This document shows positions 1 through 14,892 of a stretch of 64,000 bases of DNA, in pieces. Source of the DNA: a virus. Its lineage: Duplodnaviria > Caudoviricetes. The translations under genes were made by a program, and so were the position numbers. Where the stretch lies: IMG/VR virus record IMGVR_UViG_2934384730_000002, positions 23,867-87,866 of that record; one strand, written 5' to 3'. Position 1 is the first letter of the stretch. Every line of letters begins with the position of its first letter. Under the pieces are notes generated by a model. The model searched no databases and was not told the DNA's origin. It saw only the letters and a program-made list of their open reading frames with translations.

Positions 1-1802
1 GTGTTGTCGTACGACGCCTGAGCGGTCACCAGGGACCAGCACTCCGTGCTGTACGACGACGGACAGTCCCCGACCGAAGCACAGTCCGTGACCGTCCCGG
101 CCGGCACGTATGCGGTGACGCCGTCCAGCATGGTGTCGGTGACGGCGACGGTCCCGCCGGTGCAGTCGTGACACACCGTCCGCAGGAACGGCACGGGGGC
201 GCTGCCGGGGACGACGTCGCACAGGACCAGCGGGGCGCACTGCTCGCAGGTCGAGGCGTCGCCTGACTGACCGCCGCCCCCGCACGTGCTGTGTGCGGTG
301 CAGGAGGCGACCTCGCCGACCGGGGTGTACGGCAGCCCGTCGTAGCCGGTGTCCAGGACGTCGACCAGGTCGCCGGTCACGCAGTCCCGGCGGATCGTCC
401 GCAGGAACGGAGTCCCGCATCCGGCCTGCGGAAACGTGAGGCTGACCGTGAAGCCGTCGGCGGTCCACGCCTTGAGGCCCTGGTGCTTGGTCTCCAGGTC
501 CATCTCGATGGCGATCGTGCCCGCGAGAAGGTCCGCGCGGGAGACGTCAGCGGTCACGGTGAACTGGGCGGTGCCCCCGACCGGCGTAGCGGTGATCTGG
601 TTGGCGTCGAGGATCGTGGTCCCGTTGTAGAGGGTGAACCGGCCGGTGACTCCCTGGCCGACTGCCGGCCCCGTGTTCGTCACCGTGGCGGCGACGGTCA
701 GCGTCATGGTGTCCGGCCAGTCCCCGCACGGCGGGCACGTGCCCTCGGGCAGGGTCAGGACGGCGGCCGTGTACCGGTGGGTCGGGTCTGCGGTCGTCTC
801 ACCGCCGGGCGGCCCGTCCACGGTGATCGGCCCGCCGTCGAAGAACGGTTGCGGGTCGGCCAGCACGACCAGCTTGGTGACGCCGTCGCCGGTCTGGAAG
901 TACGGCGTCGGGTCCGTCGCCGTCGCCGCCACCAGGCCCCCGGTGTCGACCGGGGTGGTGTCGCAGAGGGTCAGCGTGGTCGAGGAGCGGCACGGGTCAG
1001 GGTCCGCCGGGTAGCAGACCCCGACGGCCCCGGCCGGTGTGTACGGGGTGCCGTCCAGGGTGTAGTCCGAGAAGCCTACGAGGGCCCCGTTCTCGTCCCG
1101 GGCGTAGTCCCGGACGAACGCGGTCACCGTGCCGTCGGTGGCGGTGTCGCACAGCTGGAGGATGTCCCGCTCCGGCTGCTCGACCCCGGCCGGGCAGACC
1201 GTGACAGTCCCCGCCGGCACGTAGGTGCCGCCGGTGATGGCGTCGACCAGGCGCACGGAGTCAATCGTGCCGTCAACGGCGTAGCTGTACTCGACGAGGA
1301 CCAGGCCGACGACGTCACCGGCGCCGTCGATGTCGCAGAACGTGCCGCTTACGGTGATGCTGCGCGATTCCCCGCACGCGACAGCCCCGGCCGGGACCGT
1401 ACCGGCAGACCACGCCCCTGTGGTGAGGTTGATCCACCCCTCCGACGTGACGACACCGTCGCAGTCCCGCACGACGGTGACCGCGATCGGAGTGCCGTCG
1501 GCGAGGCACAGGCCGACCGTCGCCGTCGGCGTGGTCAGCGCCGCACAGTCCGAAGACGCCGACCCCGACGCGCACGGCTGGAGCGTGCCCGTCGGAACGT
1601 ACACAGCGCCGGTGACCGGGTCCACGGTGCGAGTACCCAGCCGGACCCCGCTGCTCGTGTCGTACACGGCTTCGACCAGTACAGCCGCGGCGACCGTGCC
1701 GTCCGGCAGCACATCGCACAGGAGAGTCCCCTCCGCGTCCACGCGGGGCGTTGCCGCCGCCCCGGAGACGATCACGGGCCCCTGCCCGCAGCATCCACTC
1801 AC
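1..1802 (-). CDS. Cys-rich repeat putative virion protein (3' end runs off window; not in ORF track)
   Basis: GTG at 1802 overlaps the TGA of the upstream gene; reads VSGCCGQGPVIVSG...LLCDVLPDG with repeated LCD..PF(L/V)R..LDG.PY.P.G.VG.C units like those in 1799-4300. Confidence 0.8.
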   Translation of the reverse strand, partial: MSGCCGQGPVIVSGAAATPRVDAEGTLLCDVLPDGTVAAAVLVEAVYDTSSGVRLGTRTVDPVTGAVYVPTGTLQPCASGSASSDCAALTTPTATVGLCLADGTPIAVTVVRDCDGVVTSEGWINLTTGAWSAGTVPAGAVACGESRSITVSGTFCDIDGAGDVVGLVLVEYSYAVDGTIDSVRLVDAITGGTYVPAGTVTVCPAGVEQPERDILQLCDTATDGTVTAFVRDYARDENGALVGFSDYTLDGTPYTPAGAVGVCYPADPDPCRSSTTLTLCDTTPVDTGGLVAATATDPTPYFQTGDGVTKLVVLADPQPFFDGGPITVDGPPGGETTADPTHRYTAAVLTLPEGTCPPCGDWPDTMTLTVAATVTNTGPAVGQGVTGRFTLYNGTTILDANQITATPVGGTAQFTVTADVSRADLLAGTIAIEMDLETKHQGLKAWTADGFTVSLTFPQAGCGTPFLRTIRRDCVTGDLVDVLDTGYDGLPYTPVGEVASCTAHSTCGGGGQSGDASTCEQCAPLVLCDVVPGSAPVPFLRTVCHDCTGGTVAVTDTMLDGVTAYVPAGTVTDCASVGDCPSSYSTECWSLVTAQASYDN

Positions 1803-5887: not shown

Positions 5888-7567
5888 TCAGCAGGCGAGG
5901 AGCGTCTGCGCGCCGGTCTCACCGGAGGGGCAGACCGGGACGGTGACGAGGCGGGTGTCCACCGACCGGTTGACCAGCGCGGCGCACTCCTCCGCGAAGA
6001 GCGCGGTGTAGTCGTTCACGCGGAACTTCGTGCTGTCGTGGATGACGCCGAGGTTGACCTCCTCGCCACGGCCGATGACGAGGCCGCCGGCGGGGTAGAT
6101 CAGGAACTTGACCTCGCCGGGGAACGCCACGGCCGGGTCGGGGCCGCCGATCTCGTCGGGAACGGCCGGGTTCAGGCCCCGCGCGAACTGCACGCGGACA
6201 CCGAGCTTGCCGAACGTGTCCTGAATGCAGTTGGGGTCGAGGTCGCAGATGTTGACGCCGTTCTGCCGCGCGAGGTCGGCGAGGAACAGCTGCCGCGACC
6301 AGTACGGGAACACCACCTCAAGGGCGGTGCTCTCGCAGAGGCTGTGCCGCTCGATCATGTCGGCCGCCTGGAGACCCACCGCCGCGAACACGCTGGAGAG
6401 CGCGCCGAACGACGCCGCGATGTCCACGGGTGTGGCCGTGTTGAGCGCCTGCTGGAAGAGCTGCTGCTTGATACGGATCTCGTGCGCGACCATTGAGTTG
6501 CGCAGGTACCAGGAGACGAGCTCCGGGAAGTGCCGCTGGGTGAGGATGCCGGCCTCCAGGCACACGCCGATGGCGTCACAGCGCACCTCGACCGGCTCCG
6601 GGCAGGGAATGCGGAAGCAGGGCTTCTCAGCACCGCTGATGTCGTCGGCCTCGGTGTGCACCCACGTCATGGCGGCGACGTCGAGGGAGAGCGGCATGTA
6701 GTAGCGCAGGCCGCCCCGGGCGAGCTGGATCTCCGGCGCGTCCCACAGGAGGTCGGGGCACGCCGTGTCGGTCAGCTCGTAGACGGTCTCCGACGGGGCG
6801 CACCAGCCGCCCGACGCGACGAGCTCACGCTCCGGCAGGCGGCTCTGGCTGGAGGCGGTCAGGGCGACGCTGGTGCCCTCCGGCGCCGACGAGGAGTCGG
6901 TGACGATGAGTTCCTGCGGGTACGGGTGCCGGTACGAGATGACCTGACCGACGCCGCCGCCCGCCGTCTTGAGGGCGTTGGCGCGGCTGATGATGCCGGC
7001 CGTGATGTCGCCGAAGTCGAGGGCCGCGCCGGGGGTGTAGCCGGGGACGTCGACCGCCGCGGTGATGGTGGTTCCCGGGGCCGGGGCCTCGGGCAGGACG
7101 CGGGGCTGGACCCGGCGCACGGCGCTGAGGTTGAGGGCGGGCCGGGCGACGGCGGACGCGGTGGCGGTCGCGGGCGCGGCCGGAGCGGGCGCGGCCGGAG
7201 CGGGGGCGGGCTGCTCCGGGGCCGGGTCGGCGGCTGCGGTGGTCTCCTCCGCCGCGGGCGGCTCCTCCACGGCGGGCGCGGTCTGCGCCTCGTCGCCGCG
7301 GATCTGCGCGGCGAGCTGGTCGATCTCGCTCACGGCGGCCTCGGCGGCCTCGCGGCGGGACCGCTGCTCCGAGCGGATCGCCTCGGTGCCGGCGGCGAGC
7401 GCCCGCATCTGGGCGAGGGAGTCCTCCGTGATCTCGTCCCGAGCGGACAGCGCGGCGAAGGTCTGCGCGGTGGTCTCCGTCGCCGCGCTCAGGTCCTCGT
7501 CCGTGAGGGAGGAGAGGTAGGCGCCGTCGGAGAGCTGGTTGAGGTCCTGCGGGAGCTCGAAGGCCAT
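5888..7567 (-). CDS. Major capsid (hexamer-type) protein with N-terminal coiled-coil scaffold
   Basis: LVASGGWCAPSETVYEL motif; Ala/Pro linker; follows the protease gene. Confidence 0.85.
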   Translation of the reverse strand: MAFELPQDLNQLSDGAYLSSLTDEDLSAATETTAQTFAALSARDEITEDSLAQMRALAAGTEAIRSEQRSRREAAEAAVSEIDQLAAQIRGDEAQTAPAVEEPPAAEETTAAADPAPEQPAPAPAAPAPAAPATATASAVARPALNLSAVRRVQPRVLPEAPAPGTTITAAVDVPGYTPGAALDFGDITAGIISRANALKTAGGGVGQVISYRHPYPQELIVTDSSSAPEGTSVALTASSQSRLPERELVASGGWCAPSETVYELTDTACPDLLWDAPEIQLARGGLRYYMPLSLDVAAMTWVHTEADDISGAEKPCFRIPCPEPVEVRCDAIGVCLEAGILTQRHFPELVSWYLRNSMVAHEIRIKQQLFQQALNTATPVDIAASFGALSSVFAAVGLQAADMIERHSLCESTALEVVFPYWSRQLFLADLARQNGVNICDLDPNCIQDTFGKLGVRVQFARGLNPAVPDEIGGPDPAVAFPGEVKFLIYPAGGLVIGRGEEVNLGVIHDSTKFRVNDYTALFAEECAALVNRSVDTRLVTVPVCPSGETGAQTLLAC

Positions 7568-7628
7568 GGGTCGGGTCTCCAGGTTTGATCCTGATGACCC
7601 GGCCCATAACCAGCGGTACTAGTGGAAC

Positions 7629-7644
7629 AGCATAGCCACCCCGG
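7629..7644 (-). promoter_or_regulatory. Putative late promoter (CCGG-N5-CTATG(A/C)T)
   Basis: CCGGGGTGGCTATGCT upstream of the capsid gene; similar motifs at 14929 and 18863. Confidence 0.5.
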
Positions 7645-7674
7645 AGGGCAGGTAAGCGGTGATGTGAGGGGTGG

Positions 7675-8079
7675 TCAGGCCGGGGTGGGGGCCTGCTCGG
7701 CGGTGAGGGTGGCGCCCGAGGCGGTGAGCGCGGCCGGGAGCGGGTAGACCACGGCCCCGCTGTCCACGGCGCGGACCACGGCGCCGTCGGCCGCCCGCTC
7801 GTCCGCGGCGGCCCGCAGCGGGGCCTTGTCGGCGTCGTTGCGGACCTTGTGGGCGGGGAGGATCACCGTGTCTCCGGCGACGACCTCGTACGCGCCCTTG
7901 GGCCAGGCGTGGTAGACGGCGTCGCCGGTCTTCTTGTCCCGGACGACGCTGGTGGGGTACCGGTCCGCGACGGCCTCGGCGGTGCCGCGGCTGGAGCTGG
8001 TGAACGCGGGCCGGTTCGCGCGGCCGGCGTTCGGGACGACCTCGTACGTCTGGCGCTTGTTCTTGCACGCGCATGCCAT
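7675..8079 (-). CDS. Small head-associated hypothetical protein (MACACKNK...)
   Basis: ATG at 8079 with GAGGAG RBS; between protease and capsid genes. Confidence 0.7.
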   Translation of the reverse strand: MACACKNKRQTYEVVPNAGRANRPAFTSSSRGTAEAVADRYPTSVVRDKKTGDAVYHAWPKGAYEVVAGDTVILPAHKVRNDADKAPLRAAADERAADGAVVRAVDSGAVVYPLPAALTASGATLTAEQAPTPA

Positions 8080-8105
8080 GGCGGTGCTCCTCTCGGGTGG
8101 GTGGG

Positions 8106-11100
8106 TTAGGCGGCGGCGGAGACGGTGGCGGCCAGGCGCTCCACCTCCGCGCGTCGTTCGTCGGCCCGCTGCTGCTGCCGGCGGGACAGGGCGTCCAAGA
8201 GGGTGTCGAGGACGTCGGGGCTGTCGAGCGCGGCAGTCAGGGCCGGGGTCGGCACGGGTGCCGTGGCCGGGGCACCAGCGGCGGGAGCGGGGGCGGGGGT
8301 GGGCATGCCGCTCGCGGCGGACGCGGCGGACGCGGCCAGGGCGAGGTTCGAGCGCTCCACGGCGGCCGCGAGGAGCGGCGAGGAGTGCCCGGGCACGGGC
8401 ACGGACAGGACCGCGCGGAGCTGCCACCGGCCGTCGGCGCCCTGCCGCATGTGGTAGCTCGGCTGGCACGCCGTGAAGACGGTCCGGTCCCACGGGCTCA
8501 GCCAGGGAGCGGCTGCGCCGGAGAACCACAGCCCGCGCTCGTTCATGCCGGTGGTGATGACCGCAGCGACAGTCCGACTGTCGTCAAACTGGCACGACGC
8601 GGTGTCGCACTCGGCGCCGTCCTTGCTGTGGGGCACGTTCATGGTGAAGGCGCCGGCCTTGACGAACGTGCCGTCATCGAGCTTGAACCTCGCCCTCAGG
8701 AAGTGGGTCATGTCCAGCTCGCCCAGCGACTCCACAGTGAGGTTCCGGCCCGGGTACCCGGCGTGGGGTACCCCGGCCTGCGCCACCCACCCGTAGACCC
8801 GGCCGTCGGCGTAGTGCACGCCCCCGGAGCCGGGCGGGAGTTCGGCCTCGGTGGGCTCGCGGAACCAGGCGGCGGGCATGGGGTCGGCGTCGCGCATGGC
8901 GGTCCAGGCCGACGCGGCGAGGTCGGTGAGGACGTCGTCCGGCACCGGGTGGAGGCGCAGCGAGGCCGGGACGTCGGCGGGGGCGCCGGGCACGGTCCCG
9001 GCCGCCGCAGCCACCGAGGCCGACGCCTCGGTGCCGGGGCCGGCCGTCGCGCCGACGTACAGGCCGGGGCGGAGACGGACGAGGTCGCCGGCCTTGACCG
9101 CCGCGCCGAGGTGCTTCCGGGCGGTCGACACGGAGATGCCGAGGGCCTTGGCGACGTGCGCCGCGCCGACGGGGGCGGGCGCCGTACGGACGTAGGTGAC
9201 GACGCGGCGGCGGGTGGCCTCGCTGCTGGCCGTGACGTCGTCCAGGAGCGGGGGGCGGGCGGACGCTTCCCGCTCGGCCTCGTCGTCGTCCAGCGGGTCC
9301 AGGACGATCCGGGCCGCCGCGAACGCGGGGACGGCCACCAGGGTGGCGCCGCGGAGGCGGGCGCGGGTGATGCGGACGAGGAAGTCCCCGGAGTTCTCGG
9401 AGTGGACGACCACGCCGGTGTCGGGGTCGTCGGCGTCGCCGGCGGCGGCGGTGATCGCGTCGGGGAGCAGCCCCGTGCCGGCGAACGCCGAGGTGAGTGC
9501 GGAGGCGTTGACCTGTCCGCCGGGCCCGGTGATGAGCTGCACGGTGCGCCGGGTGCGGGAGAGGACCCCGGCGGAAGCAGCCCACTCGGCGGTGGGCTGG
9601 GCGGTGATGAGCCAGCCGCCGTCTTCCAGGGGCAGGAGCGACGCGGAGGCGAGGGACGCGGCCAGGACCAGGTTCCCGGCCTCGTCCTCGGCGAGGGTCT
9701 TGTCCACGAACTCCACGTCGACGTCGTCCAGGTCGACGGACACGCCGAGCGGGGCCTCTTCCTCCAGGAGGAGGGCGGCCTCGGCGCCGGAGCGCTGGGT
9801 GAGGTACAGGACGCCGCTGCCGGTGATGCGGTCCCCGTCCCGGCCCACGCTGGTGATCGCTCCGGCCAGCTCAGCGCCCTGGTGGCCGGACAGCATTTCG
9901 TCGGCGTACTGGAGGGGCCAGGGGCCGGCGCCGTCCCAGGAGAGCGCGCCCGGCCGGAAGACCCTCCCGTCGCCGGTGGTCTGGTTCTCGAAGGCGAGCG
10001 CCGTGCCGTCCGGCGTGCTCCACGCGCGGGTCGGCAGGCCGGCCGCCGTGGTCTCCTCAGTGGGCATGGGGGACCCTTCCTTTCTGAGGCCCCCGGAGGG
10101 CCTCACTCCATGGGCTGTTGCTCCTGTGCCGCCTTCAACCGGGCGCGCCGCTCCCGCTGTGCGGCAGCGGCCCTCGCCCGGTACTCCGGCGTGCTGCGGT
10201 GGGCCTTCGCTGAGGCCCGGCGCTTCGCCTTCGTCTCGTCGCTGCACTGGCGGTTCCGCAACTTGTCCGGGTTGGCCGCCGCCCACCGGCGCGTAGCCTC
10301 CCGCTGGCACTCCACGCACACGCCCCACCCCCGGCTGTCCCGCCGGTCGTACGGCCTCCTGTGCACGGAGCAAGTGGCCTGTTCCAGGCTCTCCGCGTGG
10401 TGGTCGCTGTGCTCCTGGACCGGAAGGACCACCAGGTGGTTTTCCTCCACGCACCGGGGCGTTTCGCACGTGTGGTGTACGTCCTCCTCCGGCTCGATAG
10501 GCCTCCCAAGTGCCGTGGCCGAGACGACCCGGATGGCGCTCACCTGGCGCTCCCGACCGTCGTTGATCCACACCCACGGGCGATCCTTCGACGGGGTGAG
10601 CGCCGTCAGCCGACAGCCGTTCGGCATGACCTTCGCCGCAGCCACCAGCCGGGCGGCCACTTCCGGGAGTACCGGGACCCTCGTTCCATGTCGCGTTGCC
10701 ATGCGCCCCATGGTCCCGCACGTGTGCGGCGCGCACATCACCCTGACGGGTGGCCTCGCCTGCGGATTCGTTGAGCAGGACGTCGATATGGTCCCCGCCG
10801 AACGCTAGACGGATGCGGTCGAACACGATGGGGCCGAGGCGCGCCTCCAGCTCCTCCAGCGGCCATGTCTTCCCGGTATAGATCGCACACACATGCGGAA
10901 TCCACGGGGAGTGTTGGGTGGGCAGCTCGGGGCGGTTGTGGGTGCCCTCCAGGGCGTCCGTGGCGAGGGCGTGGGCCTGGACGAGGGTGGGGGCGTCGTC
11001 GGGGGCGTCGCGGTCCCCGCCGACCGACCACACCCACGACGGGGAGTCGCTGCCGGCGTTCCAGTGGGCGGCGCCGAACGCCCGCGCGGTGATGGGGCCG

Positions 11101-12188
11101 CCGAGGTCCTGGACGCGGGAGCGGACGAGGTCCGCGAGCTCCTGGCGCTGCTCCTCGGTCCAGTCGCCGCCCTGGTCACCGAGGAAGTACAGGGTGAGGT
11201 GGAGCTCATCGGCCGCTTCGCCGCCGTCGAGGGCGAGGCGGGCGGCGTCGTCCTCGGTGGGGATGAGCGCGATCATGCCGCCCATGAGGTGGCTCCCGTC
11301 CGCCGCAGCCACGAGCGGCCCGGCATTCGAAGGTGTGGTGCCGTGGTGCGCCGACGATTCGTAAGAAGCCGTCCGTCCGGCGTCTTCGGAAGTGGGGGCG
11401 GCGGCGGAGGTGCGGCGTTCGGCGTGGGCGAGCCTCAGCACGCACCGGCAGTTCACGACGAGGGAGGCGGGGGCGGAGGGGTCGCCGGGTGCGTCCATGT
11501 CGTACCCGCCGACCCGGAACGGCTCATCGATCAGCCGGAGTTGGCCGTCCGCCTCGTCGTGGGCGTGCCGCACGCGCCGGTCGCCTCGGGTACGCCACTG
11601 CTTCACCAGGGGCCGGTCCGGGCCGGACAGCGCCCGGGCGGCCTCCAGGGTGGCGGTGTTCCAGGCGCGGGACGCCTCGGTGGCTGCGGTGCGCTCCTGG
11701 CGGCCCGCGCCGAGCTGCGGCCCGTCCTCCCGGAACCGGGTCAGGAGCCGCGCCCGGAGCTGGTCGACGTCCTCCCCGGCCTCCAGGCCCTCCGCGAGTT
11801 CCTGGCGGGCGACGTCCGCGAGGCGGTCCCCCACGGCGCGGAGCAGGTGCTCGGTGGTCTCCACGTACTGGCCGATGCCGGCGGGGAGTTCCCGGCCGTC
11901 CTCGTACCGGCCGGGGAGGTCGTCCCACGTGCCGTCGAGGTCGGCGTCCACGGAGTCGGCGGCCTGGTGCGCGGCGGTCTCCGCGACGCCGAGGAGCCGG
12001 GCGACGACCCGGGGCATGCGTGATGCCCACATGCGGGCGATGCGGCCGACGGAGAATCGGGCGGCGACCAGCTCGTCCGCGCCGGACACGGCGTCCGCGA
12101 ACTCCTCGGCCACCTCGGCGAGGACGTCCGCGACAACGCGGCTCACCTCCTCCTCTGCCTGCTGGAGCGTGGCCTCCTCATCGGCCAT
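8106..12188 (-). CDS. MuF-like minor head protein / 2H phosphoesterase / capsid maturation protease fusion (probable internal start at 10067)
   Basis: MuF motifs KQWRTRGDRRVRHAH...PGDP..VNCRC; HLTLYF...HVCA 2H pair; C-terminal protease-like part (TGDGRVF, GATLVAVPAF) with AGAAAGGAAGG RBS before ATG 10067. Confidence 0.8.
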   Translation of the reverse strand: MADEEATLQQAEEEVSRVVADVLAEVAEEFADAVSGADELVAARFSVGRIARMWASRMPRVVARLLGVAETAAHQAADSVDADLDGTWDDLPGRYEDGRELPAGIGQYVETTEHLLRAVGDRLADVARQELAEGLEAGEDVDQLRARLLTRFREDGPQLGAGRQERTAATEASRAWNTATLEAARALSGPDRPLVKQWRTRGDRRVRHAHDEADGQLRLIDEPFRVGGYDMDAPGDPSAPASLVVNCRCVLRLAHAERRTSAAAPTSEDAGRTASYESSAHHGTTPSNAGPLVAAADGSHLMGGMIALIPTEDDAARLALDGGEAADELHLTLYFLGDQGGDWTEEQRQELADLVRSRVQDLGGPITARAFGAAHWNAGSDSPSWVWSVGGDRDAPDDAPTLVQAHALATDALEGTHNRPELPTQHSPWIPHVCAIYTGKTWPLEELEARLGPIVFDRIRLAFGGDHIDVLLNESAGEATRQGDVRAAHVRDHGAHGNATWNEGPGTPGSGRPAGGCGEGHAERLSADGAHPVEGSPVGVDQRRSGAPGERHPGRLGHGTWEAYRAGGGRTPHVRNAPVRGGKPPGGPSGPGAQRPPRGEPGTGHLLRAQEAVRPAGQPGVGRVRGVPAGGYAPVGGGQPGQVAEPPVQRRDEGEAPGLSEGPPQHAGVPGEGRCRTAGAARPVEGGTGATAHGVRPSGGLRKEGSPMPTEETTAAGLPTRAWSTPDGTALAFENQTTGDGRVFRPGALSWDGAGPWPLQYADEMLSGHQGAELAGAITSVGRDGDRITGSGVLYLTQRSGAEAALLLEEEAPLGVSVDLDDVDVEFVDKTLAEDEAGNLVLAASLASASLLPLEDGGWLITAQPTAEWAASAGVLSRTRRTVQLITGPGGQVNASALTSAFAGTGLLPDAITAAAGDADDPDTGVVVHSENSGDFLVRITRARLRGATLVAVPAFAAARIVLDPLDDDEAEREASARPPLLDDVTASSEATRRRVVTYVRTAPAPVGAAHVAKALGISVSTARKHLGAAVKAGDLVRLRPGLYVGATAGPGTEASASVAAAAGTVPGAPADVPASLRLHPVPDDVLTDLAASAWTAMRDADPMPAAWFREPTEAELPPGSGGVHYADGRVYGWVAQAGVPHAGYPGRNLTVESLGELDMTHFLRARFKLDDGTFVKAGAFTMNVPHSKDGAECDTASCQFDDSRTVAAVITTGMNERGLWFSGAAAPWLSPWDRTVFTACQPSYHMRQGADGRWQLRAVLSVPVPGHSSPLLAAAVERSNLALAASAASAASGMPTPAPAPAAGAPATAPVPTPALTAALDSPDVLDTLLDALSRRQQQRADERRAEVERLAATVSAAA
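10103..10711 (-). CDS. HNH endonuclease nested in a different frame of the MuF fusion
   Basis: DVHHTCETPRCVEENHL HNH motif, CSVH...CVECQRE Zn motif, basic C-terminal tail. Confidence 0.8.
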   Translation of the reverse strand: MGRMATRHGTRVPVLPEVAARLVAAAKVMPNGCRLTALTPSKDRPWVWINDGRERQVSAIRVVSATALGRPIEPEEDVHHTCETPRCVEENHLVVLPVQEHSDHHAESLEQATCSVHRRPYDRRDSRGWGVCVECQREATRRWAAANPDKLRNRQCSDETKAKRRASAKAHRSTPEYRARAAAAQRERRARLKAAQEQQPME

Positions 12189-12420
12189 GGGTCACCTCTT
12201 CCGCCCGGGGGCCCGGGCACGAGTCGGGGTCGTGTGCTTGGGCCGGGCCGGCGGCGTGGAGGGCGTTGTCCCGTGCCCGCCACGCCACCAGCTCCGTGTC
12301 CGGCTCGATGCCGGGGCAGGCAGCGCACCAGCCGTGGGCGCGGTGCGCGGCGGCGGAGTGCCCGACCCGCGCTGTGTGGTCCAGGGGCCGGCCGTTCGGG
12401 GCTGTCGGCTGGTCAGCCAC
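12178..12420 (-). CDS. Small hypothetical protein (CxxC)
   Basis: Overlap-coupled to neighbours. Confidence 0.55.
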   Translation of the reverse strand: MADQPTAPNGRPLDHTARVGHSAAAHRAHGWCAACPGIEPDTELVAWRARDNALHAAGPAQAHDPDSCPGPRAEEVTHGR

Positions 12421-12616
12421 GGGAGGCCTCCCCGGGGCGGTGGAACGTCATCGGTTCCAGCTCCACCCGGTGGTCCTCGAAGAGGAGAACCGGGGTGATG
12501 ATTACGCCCGCCTCCTGGCCGGGAGGGGCGTCCTCAAGGGCCCGGGCGGCATCCGCGTAGATCTGGCGCCTGAAGTCGGCGAGGAAGTCCGCGAGCATGG
12601 TGGTGAGGTCAGCCAC
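12413..12616 (-). CDS. Small hypothetical protein
   Basis: Overlap-coupled, GGAGG RBS. Confidence 0.55.
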   Translation of the reverse strand: MADLTTMLADFLADFRRQIYADAARALEDAPPGQEAGVIITPVLLFEDHRVELEPMTFHRPGEASRG

Positions 12617-12830
12617 GGTCGGCCTCCCGGTCGTCGGGCTCGTCGCAGACCTCGCACCCGGCGTACGAGCCGACGACGGACACGCCGCCCCGGTCGAGGT
12701 AGAGGACTTCGCCGGTGAACCGGGTCCACGCCTTGCAGACGTGGCACCAGGCGGTGCGGGGCTCGCTGGCGGTCACGTAGACGGTGGCGGAGGCCAGAGG
12801 GGGCGGTACGGGCTGCTGGCGGGGCGTCAC
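12609..12830 (-). CDS. Small Zn-ribbon protein
   Basis: GTGA overlap with portal stop; WCHVC...CEVC. Confidence 0.55.
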   Translation of the reverse strand: MTPRQQPVPPPLASATVYVTASEPRTAWCHVCKAWTRFTGEVLYLDRGGVSVVGSYAGCEVCDEPDDREADRG

Positions 12831-14569
12831 GCGGCGACCGCCAGGCACGAGGCGCGGAGCGCGCCGGGGGTGAGGTCGTAGGCGTGGGGGATGCCTGCCG
12901 CGATCAGCTCGCGGCAGTAGGTGTCGAGGGTGTCGGCGAGGCAGTCGGGGTCGAGGCCGTGGCGGGCGGCGACGTCGGGCAGGCGCGGCCACGCCCCCTC
13001 CAGCAGGCCCCACTGCTCGACCTGTACGGCCTCGACGCGGAGCGCGGTGTGGAGGGCGGCGGGCTCGATCTCCCGGGCCCGGGCCCGTTCCGAGCGGGGG
13101 CACGCCGGGGTCTTGCGTAGCTTCTCCCCGGCGGAGGCGAGGGCGGCCCAGATCAGGGCGTCGGCGGCTTCCAGGACGGCTGTGGACGGCGCGGCGGAGG
13201 CGGGGAGGGTGTCCGGGGCGGGCAGGGTGTCCGGCTCGCTCTCGGACTCGTCCACGGGCAGGTCCGCCGGGCCCGGCTGGTCGTCGGCGGGGTCGGGTTG
13301 CGGGGCGCGCCTCTGCTCCTCCTCGGCGGTGGGGGCGTCGCTCTCGTCGAAGCCGGTCTCGCGGCGGAGCGCGGCGGCGCTGATGACGCCGCCGGCCTTG
13401 TAGACGTCCAGCGCGGTCTGGGAGCGGTTGCCGCGGACGCGGAGGCCGGAGGTGTCGGAGGCGACGACGTACCGGTGGGCGTCCTCGACGCCGTCGGCCT
13501 GGAGGATCGGGCGGAGCCACTGCGTGGTCAGGGCGTGGGTGACGGTGTCCAGGCGCGGCTGTACGCCGAGGGTGATCGCTTCTTCCTTCATGGCCCATAC
13601 GCCCCAGTGATTGAGGCCGGTGGAGCCGAGGAGGACTTCCGCGGGGACATCCATACCGGTCGCGAACCGGCGGATTGCCTCGTCCCGGAGCTTGAGCGCC
13701 AGCTCATCGAAGTCGGACTCGAACGTGAGGCGCTTGATGGCGGCGATGTGCTCCGGGGGCACCTCCAAGATCAGCGGGACCGTGGCCGCCGCCGACTCCG
13801 GCTCACGGATGGCGGTCTCCGCCACCTGCATGAACACCTCGATCAGGTCGTCTTCGGCGTCGCCCTGCACCGGAGTGGAGGGGAAGCGCGTGCCCTGGGG
13901 CACCAGGAGGACGCCGCGTCCGATGAGGCGGGACCGCGCGATCGCGGCCACGGCGGCGTTGAGGAGTTGCAGCTCCTCCAGGAGCACGAGGGACGCCCGT
14001 ACAGGGCTGTCGGCCTCCATGAACGTGCGGGGGTGGGGTTGCCAGACGCGAAGCGCGATGGGGTCGGTGTCCTCGCCGCCGCCGTCGGGGTCGGCCGGGG
14101 GGACCTCGACCGGCTCCCCCTCGATGTCCGTCACGAGCTTCTGCCCCTGCTTGCGGACCTCCTGGACGGACAGGACATGCCAGTCCTGCGTCCCGTCCTC
14201 CCGGGGCAGGACGACGATCCAGCCTTCACCGGGGACGACGAGGTGGGGACCGAACCGGCCGAGCAGCTGCGACTGGCCTTCGGGGCCGCCGGCGATGCCC
14301 GCGACGATCTCGGCGGCGCGGTCACCGGGCGGCACGGGCTCGATCGTCTTGCCGTCGTCGGCGAGGCGCCCGGCGTAGAGGGTGGCGGCGCTCATCGCGC
14401 CGGAGATCCACTGTGCGGCGAAGCGGACCTCGGGGGTGGTGTCGTAGAAGCTCCAGGCGCGGGACTGCCACCCGCTGTCGGTGCCCTTCGACTGCGTCTT
14501 GGTCTTGCGGGCGGTGTAGCGGGAGGCTGCGGCGGTGATGACGCGGCGCGGCGCTGCGGGGGCGGTCAC
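12827..14569 (-). CDS. Portal protein
   Basis: WQSRAWSFYDTTPEVRFAAQW N-terminus and NHWGVW motif; lies between terminase and MuF. Confidence 0.8.
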   Translation of the reverse strand: MTAPAAPRRVITAAASRYTARKTKTQSKGTDSGWQSRAWSFYDTTPEVRFAAQWISGAMSAATLYAGRLADDGKTIEPVPPGDRAAEIVAGIAGGPEGQSQLLGRFGPHLVVPGEGWIVVLPREDGTQDWHVLSVQEVRKQGQKLVTDIEGEPVEVPPADPDGGGEDTDPIALRVWQPHPRTFMEADSPVRASLVLLEELQLLNAAVAAIARSRLIGRGVLLVPQGTRFPSTPVQGDAEDDLIEVFMQVAETAIREPESAAATVPLILEVPPEHIAAIKRLTFESDFDELALKLRDEAIRRFATGMDVPAEVLLGSTGLNHWGVWAMKEEAITLGVQPRLDTVTHALTTQWLRPILQADGVEDAHRYVVASDTSGLRVRGNRSQTALDVYKAGGVISAAALRRETGFDESDAPTAEEEQRRAPQPDPADDQPGPADLPVDESESEPDTLPAPDTLPASAAPSTAVLEAADALIWAALASAGEKLRKTPACPRSERARAREIEPAALHTALRVEAVQVEQWGLLEGAWPRLPDVAARHGLDPDCLADTLDTYCRELIAAGIPHAYDLTPGALRASCLAVAA

Positions 14570-14892
14570 GAGGCGGCCTTGCGGGAGTCGTCCCAGCGGT
14601 TCAGGAGCGCGGCGGCGCCGGCGACCGCGAACCACAACAGGCCGACCTGGACCACGCGGTTGTCGGGCCACAGGAGCCAGGCGGCGAGGACGGCGCCGGT
14701 CAGCCACCAGCCGAGGCAGTAGATGCAGGAGATGAGGGTGACGACGAACGCCCGGGCGCTGGACTCGGGGCGGCGGGTCTGCCAGTCGAACACCTTGTCC
14801 CGGGCGGGGTCGAGGATGGCGTCATGTACGCCGAGTTGGGTGAGTCGATATCCGGCGAGCGCCAGGATTACGAGTTCCGGGATTGTGATCAT
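14566..14892 (-). CDS. DUF1360-like small membrane protein
   Basis: LAGYRLTQL..D.I..P.R...LISCIYCLGWW plus TM helices. Confidence 0.7.
   Translation of the reverse strand: MITIPELVILALAGYRLTQLGVHDAILDPARDKVFDWQTRRPESSARAFVVTLISCIYCLGWWLTGAVLAAWLLWPDNRVVQVGLLWFAVAGAAALLNRWDDSRKAAS

Follow-up and report, generated by a model that had tools for sequence, protein, structure and literature searches.

A nested, out-of-frame HNH endonuclease gene in a phage head gene that remains a single open reading frame

How an endonuclease gene can reside inside a phage head gene without interrupting it is the question raised by the locus described here. To our knowledge, homing endonuclease genes are thought to persist inside other genes only by means of self-splicing introns or inteins, being otherwise located between genes. 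A splicing-free alternative has been proposed for phage methylases by computational work from 2025 (PMC11855218). In the window (the whole stretch of phage DNA analysed, 64,000 nucleotides), a sequence-only reading had noticed an HNH gene within a long ORF and proposed a homing element that needs no splicing and is tolerated by read-through of the host frame as a disordered linker. The analysis supports this proposal, and neither of the two outcomes that had been named against it, separate genes in the relatives or a standard group I intron, occurred. We consider it probable that an HNH homing gene was copied into a single-ORF head gene whose frame is read through, and that the element is neither an intron nor an intein.

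The host gene is part of a Streptomyces-type prophage, in a region where all genes are carried by the minus strand, and it is organized as follows:

8106..12188, minus strand: host ORF, 1360 aa, uninterrupted, in the order MuF, 2H phosphoesterase, insert, C-terminal part
11436..11807, minus strand: MuF domain, residues 128-251 (PF04233, E 2.4e-10)
10767..11294, minus strand: 2H (LigT-like) phosphoesterase domain, residues about 299-474 (phrog_2659, E 2.5e-25)
8106..10064, minus strand: downstream part (phrog_859 positions 366-781, phrog_21470), with an HTH-like domain and a conserved C-terminal domain

The host protein (P0001) was matched by phrog_859 as one stretch (residues 3-1357), and its homologues are labelled 'capsid maturation protease and MuF-like fusion protein'. 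Both 2H motifs are present, HLTL and PHVC, the second of which reads H-x-C, and the AF2 model of this domain (pLDDT 87-98) matched E. coli LigT (5ldi) in Foldseek with an E value of 2e-5. For the downstream part, no protease family was detected in Pfam at E <= 0.01 and no sequence match was found in the PDB; its designation as a putative protease is taken solely from the annotation of relatives.

The nested gene and the insert that contains it are the following:

10103..10702, minus strand: HNH endonuclease gene (199 aa and a stop codon) in the host's +1 frame; 10711, 10738 and 10741 are possible alternative starts
10072..10773, minus strand: insert as delimited against L007, the closest empty allele: 702 nt, a net gain of +687 nt or 229 codons, without host-frame stop

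As had been described, the HNH ORF lies entirely within the 1360-aa ORF, on the same strand and in a shifted frame, and the host frame is free of stops across the insert. The HNH is read in the host's +1 frame, and the host conversely in the +2 frame of the HNH. The ORF first delimited as 10103-10711 is intact, but its start at 10711 was replaced by the ATG at 10702 (MATRHG...), which is likelier because the called protein (P0003) and the N-termini of its homologues begin there; the stop is the TGA at 10105-10103. No clear Shine-Dalgarno (SD) sequence was seen upstream of the HNH start. The GC content by codon position in the HNH frame is 0.69/0.55/0.88. The product was matched by phrog_826 (E 2.6e-12) and, below the Pfam gathering cut-off, by PF13392 HNH_3 (E 0.003), and it contains an HNH nuclease motif with Zn-binding Cys/His residues, H76, H77, C79, C84, H89, H98, H102, C111, H114, C129, C132 being invariant in 16 relatives. 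It may be an active endonuclease.

The boundaries of the insert were defined by alignment to HNH-less homologues, as had been suggested. The open host frame, put at about 235 codons by the sequence-only reading, is indeed stop-free but shorter, with a net length of 229 codons against the L007 allele. The insert is located in the linker that joins 2H to the protease part, with the host in phase on both sides, and it includes about 70 + 31 nt (about 101 nt) outside the HNH ORF. Host-frame codons ending in A or T amount to 99 of 230 in the insert and 38 of 475 upstream, and given these codons the read-through of the insert may be slow.

Relatives do not encode MuF-2H and the protease part as separate genes. 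In all 62 IMG/VR loci with both domains, the 2H and downstream parts form one fused frame with no HNH between them, and the same single frame without HNH was found in 3 annotated phages; moreover, the linker is stop-free in 46 of the 46 relatives in which both anchor motifs were located. The nearest insert-less allele, L007, shows 96-99% nucleotide identity to the window on both sides of the site, revealing that the HNH is present sporadically among near-identical alleles. Comparison with this allele also delimited a further feature:

10774..10950, minus strand: foreign (co-conversion-like) tract, about 180 nt directly 5' of the insert, 74-78% nucleotide identity to L007

This tract is one-sided, the 3' flank being immediately at least 98% identical to L007. 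At the protein level it is 70% identical to L007, which is itself 85-90% identical to other HNH-less alleles, and it shows 58% identity to the HNH-bearing candidates P0014 or P0015 described below, no closer than the rest of the protein. Judged by its sequence, the tract is consistent with a co-converted flank, and the donor would have been a diverged allele from which the HNH gene entered the linker between the 2H and downstream parts by gene conversion. The idea that HNH-bearing, 'immune' alleles are recognisable by a 2H tail of the YT..WPL form was weakened by the presence of the TWPL form in many HNH-less loci and by the lack of any special closeness of the tract to P0014 or P0015.

Further nested copies were retrieved from IMG/VR by searching with the HNH and not by means of open frames. 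HNHs 38-58% identical to that of the window were found in L076 (with a duplicate contig, L077), L080, L081 (with a fragment, L083) and L082, and a second scan with a broader HNH alignment recovered the same five loci again. In L076, L080, L081 and L082 the HNH is nested in a 2H-bearing ORF (with PF13563 matches in L076, L080 and L082), the host being in the HNH +2 frame with 0 stops and keeping its phase on both sides. Other members of the family are inserted at a point hereafter called site A, near the second HxT/C motif and inside the 2H fold, in hosts with architectures other than that of the window's gene, and the family has two insertion sites, between domains in the window and inside the 2H fold at site A. 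The inserts at site A are close to a bare HNH ORF, with the ATG 10-22 nt past the junction and the stop at or within the resumed host codons; in L076, the TGA that ends the HNH shares bases with an ATG of the host frame (ATGA). The HNH probably cuts near site A, because other members are inserted there and the foreign tract of the window begins there.

Free-standing copies were also found. In Myrna, Cali and L079 the HNH is located at the 3' end of a stand-alone 2H gene, whose frame stops at once. When the phage collection was searched by tblastn with the HNH of the window, all 68 hits were in cluster-C-type phages; among the matches listed, the HNH overlaps an 'RNA ligase' in 57 of 60 cluster-C-type records, and none of these 60 listed records of the 68 hits had a methylase as the site of the hit. 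Every family member with known context sits at a phage 2H gene, and the family is specialised on these genes. This constant association, together with the overlap of the HNH with the end of the 2H gene in those 57 mycobacteriophage records, would also fit an HNH that is not selfish but works together with the 2H enzyme, for instance as a nuclease and end-healing pair. Such a role is highly improbable in view of the lack of the HNH in 62 of 62 related fusion genes, including the allele with 96-99% identity, of the foreign flanking tract, and of the out-of-frame insertion within the 2H fold, which resembles invasion and not design.

Two large proteins, P0014 (1763 aa) and P0015 (1706 aa), carry an alternative-frame peptide at the window's site and read through it, and in P0015 the downstream part is not preceded by a Met. 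Both are known as proteins and not as DNA, so that the nesting of an HNH in them is presumed; they are also a biased sample because they were found via the read-through peptide and are hence open. This peptide matched P0015 alone among 1.84 billion representatives and P0014 alone in a word-indexed database. Nine closer HNH relatives (P0004-P0013) are known as proteins alone. In-frame fused HNH forms of 372-2000 aa were not found, which is weak evidence.

The sequence-only reading had warned that an open frame by itself is weak evidence, and this is true for the window alone, as 264 of 2302 windows of 232 codons (11.5%) taken from frame +2 of gene-like ORFs in the same phage contain no stop and the probability of 0 host-frame stops in synonymous shuffles of its HNH was 0.044-0.057. 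The relatives found through the HNH answer this caveat, because four further independent nested copies are open with significant stop avoidance, whereas stop avoidance is not significant in three free-standing ones. For the five nested copies the probabilities of 0 host-frame stops were 0.044, 0.0002, 0.028, 0.031 and 0.023 (Fisher combined 2.2e-6), with about 3 to 7 stops per copy predicted by the shuffles, and no stop depletion was detected in their +1 frames. In the free-standing controls Myrna, Cali and L079, stops are present in the corresponding +2 frame of the HNH and the shuffle probabilities were 0.40, 0.22 and 0.16. At the level of codon choice, stop avoidance across the window and its relatives thus provides strong evidence for a frame kept open.

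The 3' end of the insert contains three elements:

10085..10105, minus strand: hairpin containing the HNH stop codon, arms TGAGGCCC (10105-10098) and GGGCCTCA (10092-10085)
10075..10085, minus strand: SD-like sequence AGAAAGGAAGG, 7 nt upstream of ATG 10067
10065..10067, minus strand: in-frame ATG (MPTEETT...) where the downstream part begins, a candidate site for a restart or an internal start

The hairpin noted previously does fold, with 9 bp, but it is not an exceptional structure, since the 76-nt stretch gave a z of +0.41 against shuffles and 130 of 200 shuffles were as stable. A proposed long-range pairing of GGGACC with GGTCCC was rejected, as these sites are not above chance (69 in the window against 121 expected, four of them within 10070-10795). 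In contrast, the strong ribosome-binding site ahead of ATG 10067 was confirmed, AGAAAGGAAGG being a sequence that we take to be complementary to the anti-SD of Streptomyces 16S rRNA. An equivalent Met with an upstream SD-like GAGGAG was found in 26 of 46 HNH-less relatives, so that the internal start may pre-date the insert. The suggestion that the insert spares its host by supplying a restart site therefore holds for the window, with its strong SD and ATG, but does not generalize, since such a start is missing from P0015, L080, L081 and L082.

These observations bear on the possibility that the gene works in pieces, that is, that the open frame is luck, translation of the downstream part begins from the SD and ATG 10067, and the long product is irrelevant or even harmful. 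The strong start at the 3' end of the insert, its counterparts in 26 of the 46 HNH-less relatives, the ATGA overlap in L076 and the weak statistics of the window taken alone would agree with it. However, even with an SD-led start downstream of the insert, a host frame free of stops leaves no way to produce the upstream part as a protein of its own; frame and phase are preserved in P0015, L080, L081 and L082 although their junctions lack a restart codon; and the stop avoidance over five nested copies (P 2e-6) would be unexplained if read-through were irrelevant. We regard this possibility as unlikely, and return to the preferred reading of a continuous host frame.

Group I introns of phages often carry HNH genes, so a self-splicing intron (group I, group II or of an unrecognised class) that bears the HNH ORF and is excised from the transcript has to be considered too. 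The hairpin at the 3' end of the insert and the existence of atypical introns in actinophages (PMC11855218, section 3.1) could be taken in its favour. Nevertheless, when positions 7500-12800 of the window were analysed by cmscan against Rfam, no group I or II intron was found at E <= 1, the sole match being the microRNA family mir-6790 at chance level (E 0.4), and no Rfam match of any kind at E <= 1 was obtained for L076, L080, L081 and L082. The Infernal run thus bears out the earlier impression that no group I core is recognisable. In addition, the sequence beyond the HNH ORF, which amounts to about 70 + 31 nt in the insert of the window and to about 10-22 + 0 nt in those at site A, is too short for a ribozyme core, and an intron gives no reason for the preservation of host phase or for stop avoidance. 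A group I or II intron was therefore rejected, a self-splicing element of whichever class is very improbable, and removal of the insert at the RNA level appears unlikely from the sequence.

An intein was rejected likewise, since the HNH is in another frame and the 1360-aa P0001 has no Hint domain. No intein family was found in this protein (Pfam, E <= 0.01) and no splicing residues are evident, in agreement with the absence of an intein signature noted earlier, whereas Intein_splicing matches were obtained within the MuF motif of P0014 and P0015, so the same method detects real inteins. The insert could still be translated and then cut out of the protein, by the neighbouring prohead protease or by an unrecognised form of protein splicing. 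It adjoins the part annotated as maturation protease, a disordered linker would be an easy protease substrate, and true inteins occur in this gene family, in the MuF motif of P0014 and P0015. Against this, no intein family appears in the host-frame reading, whose sequence is dictated by the HNH frame, and at site A the inserts interrupt the 2H fold itself, in hosts of different architecture; removal at the protein level is accordingly rated as quite unlikely.

The preferred reading, with a read-through peptide that stays in the protein, was also compared with structural predictions. In the AF2 model of the host protein the insert showed a pLDDT of 33-49 beside the 2H domain at 87-98, a low confidence to be read with the fact that the alignment had two homologous rows there. 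The host-frame peptides contain 74-82% disorder-promoting residues. In the model of L081, a loop of 190 aa interrupts the 2H domain, whose fold nevertheless closes across it, and the best match was 1iuh (Z 16.4, rmsd 3.5, 165 residues aligned, model range 4-361). The host-frame product of the insert is thus predicted to be unstructured and to stay apart from the host fold.

With an element out of frame, a length that is a multiple of three and a stop-free codon choice, ribosomes would run through the host gene. Read-through would add about 230 disordered residues, rich in Gly, Pro, Ala and Arg, between two folded parts, and the resulting protein would be expected to work; in the window allele, the strong SD and ATG at the 3' end of the insert could also start the downstream part independently. 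More broadly, homing endonuclease genes of GC-rich phages may in general have been selected to leave the host frame open, which would be a third route in addition to introns and inteins; in this route the gene is dual-coding and its synonymous sites keep the host frame open as a harmless disordered loop, so that one HNH lineage would be free-standing and translationally coupled at a lone 2H gene and nested where 2H is fused to essential domains. We see the arguments for and against this generalization as evenly balanced. If it is true, dual coding lets an HNH invade the interior of a fold and an essential head polyprotein. One prophage with one 702-nt insert also offers a compact system to test the tolerance of virion proteins to large disordered insertions, and the locus is suited to asking how an internal out-of-frame gene without obvious ribosome-binding site is translated. 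As a warning for annotation, very long 'fusion' ORFs in GC-rich phages can conceal an endonuclease gene in another frame.

The locus can be compared with several known systems. Free-standing homing endonuclease genes of T4-like phages, the basis of 'intronless homing', occupy intergenic positions or divide a gene into two ORFs. The element described here would resemble them in that a stand-alone gene spreads by cutting the empty allele, with co-conversion of flanking markers and a cut site that can be distant from the gene, but the host ORF is continuous here. In Aeromonas phage Aeh1, nrdA is split by mobE into two polypeptides that reassemble ('genes in pieces'). A homing gene lies there too within an essential coding sequence, without intron or intein and with host function retained, but our host frame lacks a stop and a single polypeptide is predicted. 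As with inteins that have homing endonuclease domains, a mobile endonuclease-bearing insert is in phase inside a conserved gene, although here the endonuclease is out of frame and there is no Hint domain. The pairs gp94/gp95 of Myrna and gp90/gp91 of Cali, with an HNH beside an 'RNA ligase', belong to the same HNH family (50-54% identity) and have the same 2H target, but unlike in the window, their HNH overlaps the last codons only of a lone 2H gene (GTGA in Cali).

The closest parallel is provided by the 'ShiLan domain' and Pacc40 gp60, out-of-frame HNH insertions in mycobacteriophage DNA methylases (Arsenault, Gosselin & Gogarten, 2025; PMC11855218). These share with our locus an alternate-frame HNH ORF in a host gene whose frame is stop-free, the absence of intron or intein signatures, an in-frame product predicted as a loop or disordered, related HNHs that are free-standing beside the target gene elsewhere, and actinophage hosts. 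The element of the window belongs to this known kind. The terms MuF, protease, RNA ligase and Streptomyces are absent from the text of PMC11855218, and its abstract and sections 3 and 4 report no test of stop avoidance. In contrast to ShiLan, whose methylase is deemed dispensable by its authors (PMC11855218), the host here is a 2H domain in a MuF/2H/protease head polyprotein; the HNH lineage is a separate one, judging by the 68 tblastn hits, all in cluster-C-type phages, and by the lack of a methylase among the 60 listed; the insertion sites are two, between domains and inside the fold; and the insert of the window has an SD and an ATG at its 3' end. The ShiLan-type idea is thus extended to a second HNH lineage, to an essential head-assembly polyprotein and to insertions inside a folded domain, and further by a statistical signal of selection on the endonuclease codons, for which the free-standing copies serve as natural controls.

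The window belongs to an 87.9-kb IMG/VR provirus record with an estimated completeness of 94%, and among named phages Streptomyces phage TurkishDelight comes closest (69% amino acid identity). The HNH gene is nested in the head module, which is organised as follows:

14707..12827, minus strand: portal (phrog_776)
12188..8106, minus strand: long ORF, stop-free, 1360 aa, between the portal gene and a small ORF
Residues 128-251 of the long ORF, minus strand: MuF domain (PF04233)
Window 10767-11294, minus strand: 2H/LigT-like domain (phrog_2659 match over residues 274-474 of the long ORF)
Long ORF after the 2H domain, minus strand: Gly/Pro/Ala/Arg-rich stretch of ~230 residues
8106-10064, minus strand: conserved C-terminal half (downstream part), called 'protease' in relatives
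Between the long ORF and the major head protein, minus strand: small ORF
7567..5888, minus strand: major head protein (phrog_777)

The phrog_859 alignment spans residues 3-1357 of the long ORF unbroken, and therefore the fused architecture is the norm of the family; its label 'portal protein' seems wrong, given the separate portal gene upstream. The 2H domain was predicted with AF2 pLDDT of 87-98 and matched E. coli LigT in Foldseek (E 2e-5). For the downstream part (8106-10064, minus strand), searches yielded neither a Pfam protease family (E <= 0.01) nor a PDB sequence match (E < 0.4). An HTH/winged-helix-like segment in this head-assembly protein (window 9048-9221, minus strand; residues 990-1047), with matches to HTH_20 (E 3e-4 to 2e-3) and AbiEi_4 (0.008) that are both under the Pfam cut-offs, is common to TurkishDelight, Mischief19, Maih and the insert-bearing relative proteins P0014 and P0015.

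The presence of an HNH ORF inside the long ORF, as seen in the sequence-only reading, was borne out: it is in the +1 frame, ends with TGA at 10105-10103 and likely starts at ATG 10702, which is the start of the called protein P0003 and agrees with the N-termini of its homologues. GC by codon position in this frame is 0.69/0.55/0.88, so it is the HNH frame that has the shape of coding sequence. Read in the host frame, A/T-ending codons amount to 99 of 230 in the insert versus 38 of 475 upstream.

Alleles without the insert were found. TurkishDelight gp15, Mischief19 gp12 and Maih gp11, annotated as 'capsid maturation protease and MuF-like fusion protein', are single CDSs with nothing at the insert position. 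When IMG/VR was scanned with the downstream part as query, 69 loci were obtained, 62 of which had both the 2H and the downstream part, in the same frame and a few codons apart in every case (62/62) and with no HNH between them (0/62); the other seven were without a 2H match in the DNA examined. The linker was 25-48 aa long and stop-free in all 46 HNH-less relatives in which both anchor motifs could be located by regular expression, a count that leaves out 26 loci where no motif pair was found.

The nearest insert-less allele, L007, is 96-99% identical to the window in nucleotides across ~8 kb. Compared with it, the insert is 702 nt (window 10773..10072) and lengthens the gene by a net 687 nt (229 codons). 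The 3' flank is at least 98% identical from its first bases, whereas identity falls to 74-78% in the segment that abuts the insert on its 5' side (10950-10774). In amino acids, this tract (residues 413-475), which begins directly past the second HxT/C motif (PHVC), shows 70% identity to L007, versus 98% for the adjoining 2H core and 97% for the downstream part. The L007 tract is 85-90% identical to those of other HNH-less clade members and the window tract 68-75% identical to all of them; therefore, it is the window tract that was imported. With a break upstream of the endonuclease gene, gene conversion by a diverged donor would be expected to leave such a one-sided tract. Further short patches at 83-86% identity to L007 (window 11401-11490, 9454-9543 and 8644-8733, in a gene otherwise at 96-100%) suggest extra small recombination mosaics unrelated to the HNH.

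Relatives of the HNH, whose family proved to be linked to 2H genes, were sought with the HNH itself as query, a search without bias from the state of the host frame. Nested copies, 38-58% identical to the window HNH, were found in IMG/VR loci L076 (duplicate L077) and L080 and in metagenome loci L081 (fragment L083) and L082, each within a long same-strand ORF bearing a 2H domain:

L076: 2H alone with a C-terminal extension
L080: 2H-MuF-GNAT
L081: MuF-2H-downstream part
L082: X-2H-MuF-like

All four inserts occupy one aligned column within the 2H domain (site A; alignment A5), straight past the second HxT/C motif and ahead of the last helix and strands; the Pfam 2H profile stops exactly there, at position 114-122 of 152. 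The host ORF of L080 (2412-6377) is a polyprotein of >1322 aa, with 2H, then MuF, then a long extension matching a GNAT acetyltransferase (PF00583, E 1.7e-4), and is similar to MuF proteins whose C-terminal effector domains vary. The HNH-less relative L015 has a distant HNH relative ~4 kb downstream of its fusion gene, on the opposite strand (8204-8476; 31% identity over residues 24-112).

Free-standing copies were also detected. In Myrna (L078) and L079, the HNH overlaps the last codons of a stand-alone 2H gene. In the GenBank phage collection, HNH matches occurred in 68 records, all Mycobacterium phages of 153-165 kb; among the 60 matches listed, 57 overlapped an 'RNA ligase' gene, and the other three were two Myrna records (gp94 'RNA ligase' adjacent) and one 'hypothetical protein' record. 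In Cali (L085), GTGA at 1213-1216 joins the stop of the stand-alone 2H gene to the GTG start of the HNH, an arrangement typical of translational coupling; no such host stop is present at the HNH start of the nested copies.

At the window's own site (site B, after ...DIPL), searching protein databases with the read-through peptide, that is, the host-frame translation of the insert, yielded P0014 (1763 aa; 45% identity over 99% of the peptide) and P0015 (1706 aa; 41%), the latter the sole match among 1.84 billion representatives. Both are MuF-2H-insert-downstream proteins known from protein sequence alone, and are necessarily open, because such a search returns translated frames by design. Both also carry a true intein splitting the MuF 'NCRC' motif (VVNC|FPGDT...SHN|CRC; residues ~257-581 and ~258-584, respectively; Intein_splicing E 5e-6 and 6e-5, under the gathering score), and thus combine two different mobile inserts within a single head gene.

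In all five nested copies with DNA, the host frame was the HNH frame +2, had no stop across the HNH and kept phase with the host sequence recognisable on either side. Each HNH gene was shuffled among synonymous codons 20,000 times, P being the chance of host-frame stops as few as observed.

Host-frame stops under synonymous shuffling
Window, nested: 2.6 expected, P 0.044
L076, nested: 6.8 expected, P 0.0002
L080, nested: 2.9 expected, P 0.028
L081, nested: 2.9 expected, P 0.031
L082, nested: 2.9 expected, P 0.023
Myrna, free-standing: P 0.40
L079, free-standing: P 0.22
Cali, free-standing: P 0.16

Combined by Fisher's method, the five nested copies gave 2.2e-6, and the preserved phase contributes a further factor of 1/3 for each of them. 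No depletion of +1 frame stops was detected in any of these five (P 0.33-0.94). Taken alone, the open host frame of the window counts as weak evidence: among 2302 comparable windows from genes of this phage, 264 were stop-free, and resampling from phage codon usage gave P 0.145.

Removal of the insert from RNA or protein was also considered. No intron was found by Rfam at E <= 1 in the window region or the nested relatives, and the host-frame reading of the insert contained no intein family. The site A inserts are little beyond the HNH ORF, with the ATG 10-22 nt past the host motif and the stop at or inside resumed host codons (an ATGA overlap in L076, within host codons in L081 and L082); the window insert has ~70 nt of non-HNH sequence 5' of the ORF and 31 nt 3' of it.

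The host-frame peptides were 74-82% disorder-promoting and 11-15% hydrophobic in 7/7 cases, versus 27-30% hydrophobic in the neighbouring domains. The window insert was modelled by AF2 at pLDDT 33-49 with almost no secondary structure, from a 37-row alignment with few homologous rows for the insert. L081 was predicted as one 2H fold over a 190-residue loop (pLDDT 84-97 for the N-terminal part, 90-97 for the post-insert helix and strands), and this predicted structure can be aligned over its full length with solved 2H enzymes (best match 1iuh: Z 16.4, rmsd 3.5, 165/183 residues, model range 4..361). Its structural neighbours include the anti-CBASS phage nuclease Acb1 (7t26: Z 11.3, rmsd 3.5, 132 residues aligned), poxvirus cGAMP phosphodiesterase and viral 2',5'-phosphodiesterases; a MuF-fused 2H might be a capsid-carried enzyme degrading nucleotide signals, fold likeness alone not being proof of function.

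The sequence-only reading had proposed a splicing-free element tolerated by read-through as a disordered linker and/or by a restart site. The positions it gave for the hairpin, the AGAAAGGAAGG motif and ATG 10067 hold, and AGAAAGGAAGG-N7-ATG (10085..10065) makes a good ribosome-binding site; the hairpin energy and the suggested GGGACC/GGTCCC pairing were at chance level. The corresponding Met follows GAGGAG-type codons (...PEEEPM...) in 26 of 46 HNH-less relatives, so an internal start for the downstream part may pre-date the insert. In the linkers of these 26, from the set L001 and L007-L074, a GAGGAG-type SD-like motif lies 3-12 nt ahead of an in-frame ATG/GTG, ~13-17 codons before WSTP, which suggests a nested internal start that would produce the downstream (protease/scaffold-like) part separately, a signal that acidic linker composition could mimic. 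P0014 retains a Met following an SD-compatible 'QEAP', and P0015 has no Met on the way into the downstream domain. Both routes are therefore available in the window; for P0015, L080, L081 and L082, read-through is the only one.

The feature is real, and its most likely reading, which we consider probable, is a homing endonuclease gene whose host reads through it, with an optional restart site after the HNH gene in the window allele. The window element is a new member of a kind already known, though only computationally: out-of-frame read-through HNH insertion, recently described by Arsenault, Gosselin & Gogarten (2025; PMC11855218) and little studied. The 'ShiLan domain' reported there in mycobacteriophage DNA methylases is an out-of-frame HNH with a stop-free host frame, no intron or intein signature and a predicted loop as host-frame product; Pacc40 gp60 is a second case, whose relatives have its HNH free-standing beside the methylase. 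The text of that paper has no mention of MuF, protease, RNA ligase, phosphoesterase or Streptomyces. Compared with the ShiLan and Pacc40 elements as described there, the window element has another target gene and belongs to another HNH lineage, and the selection test with its natural controls is, as far as could be seen from the same text, new.
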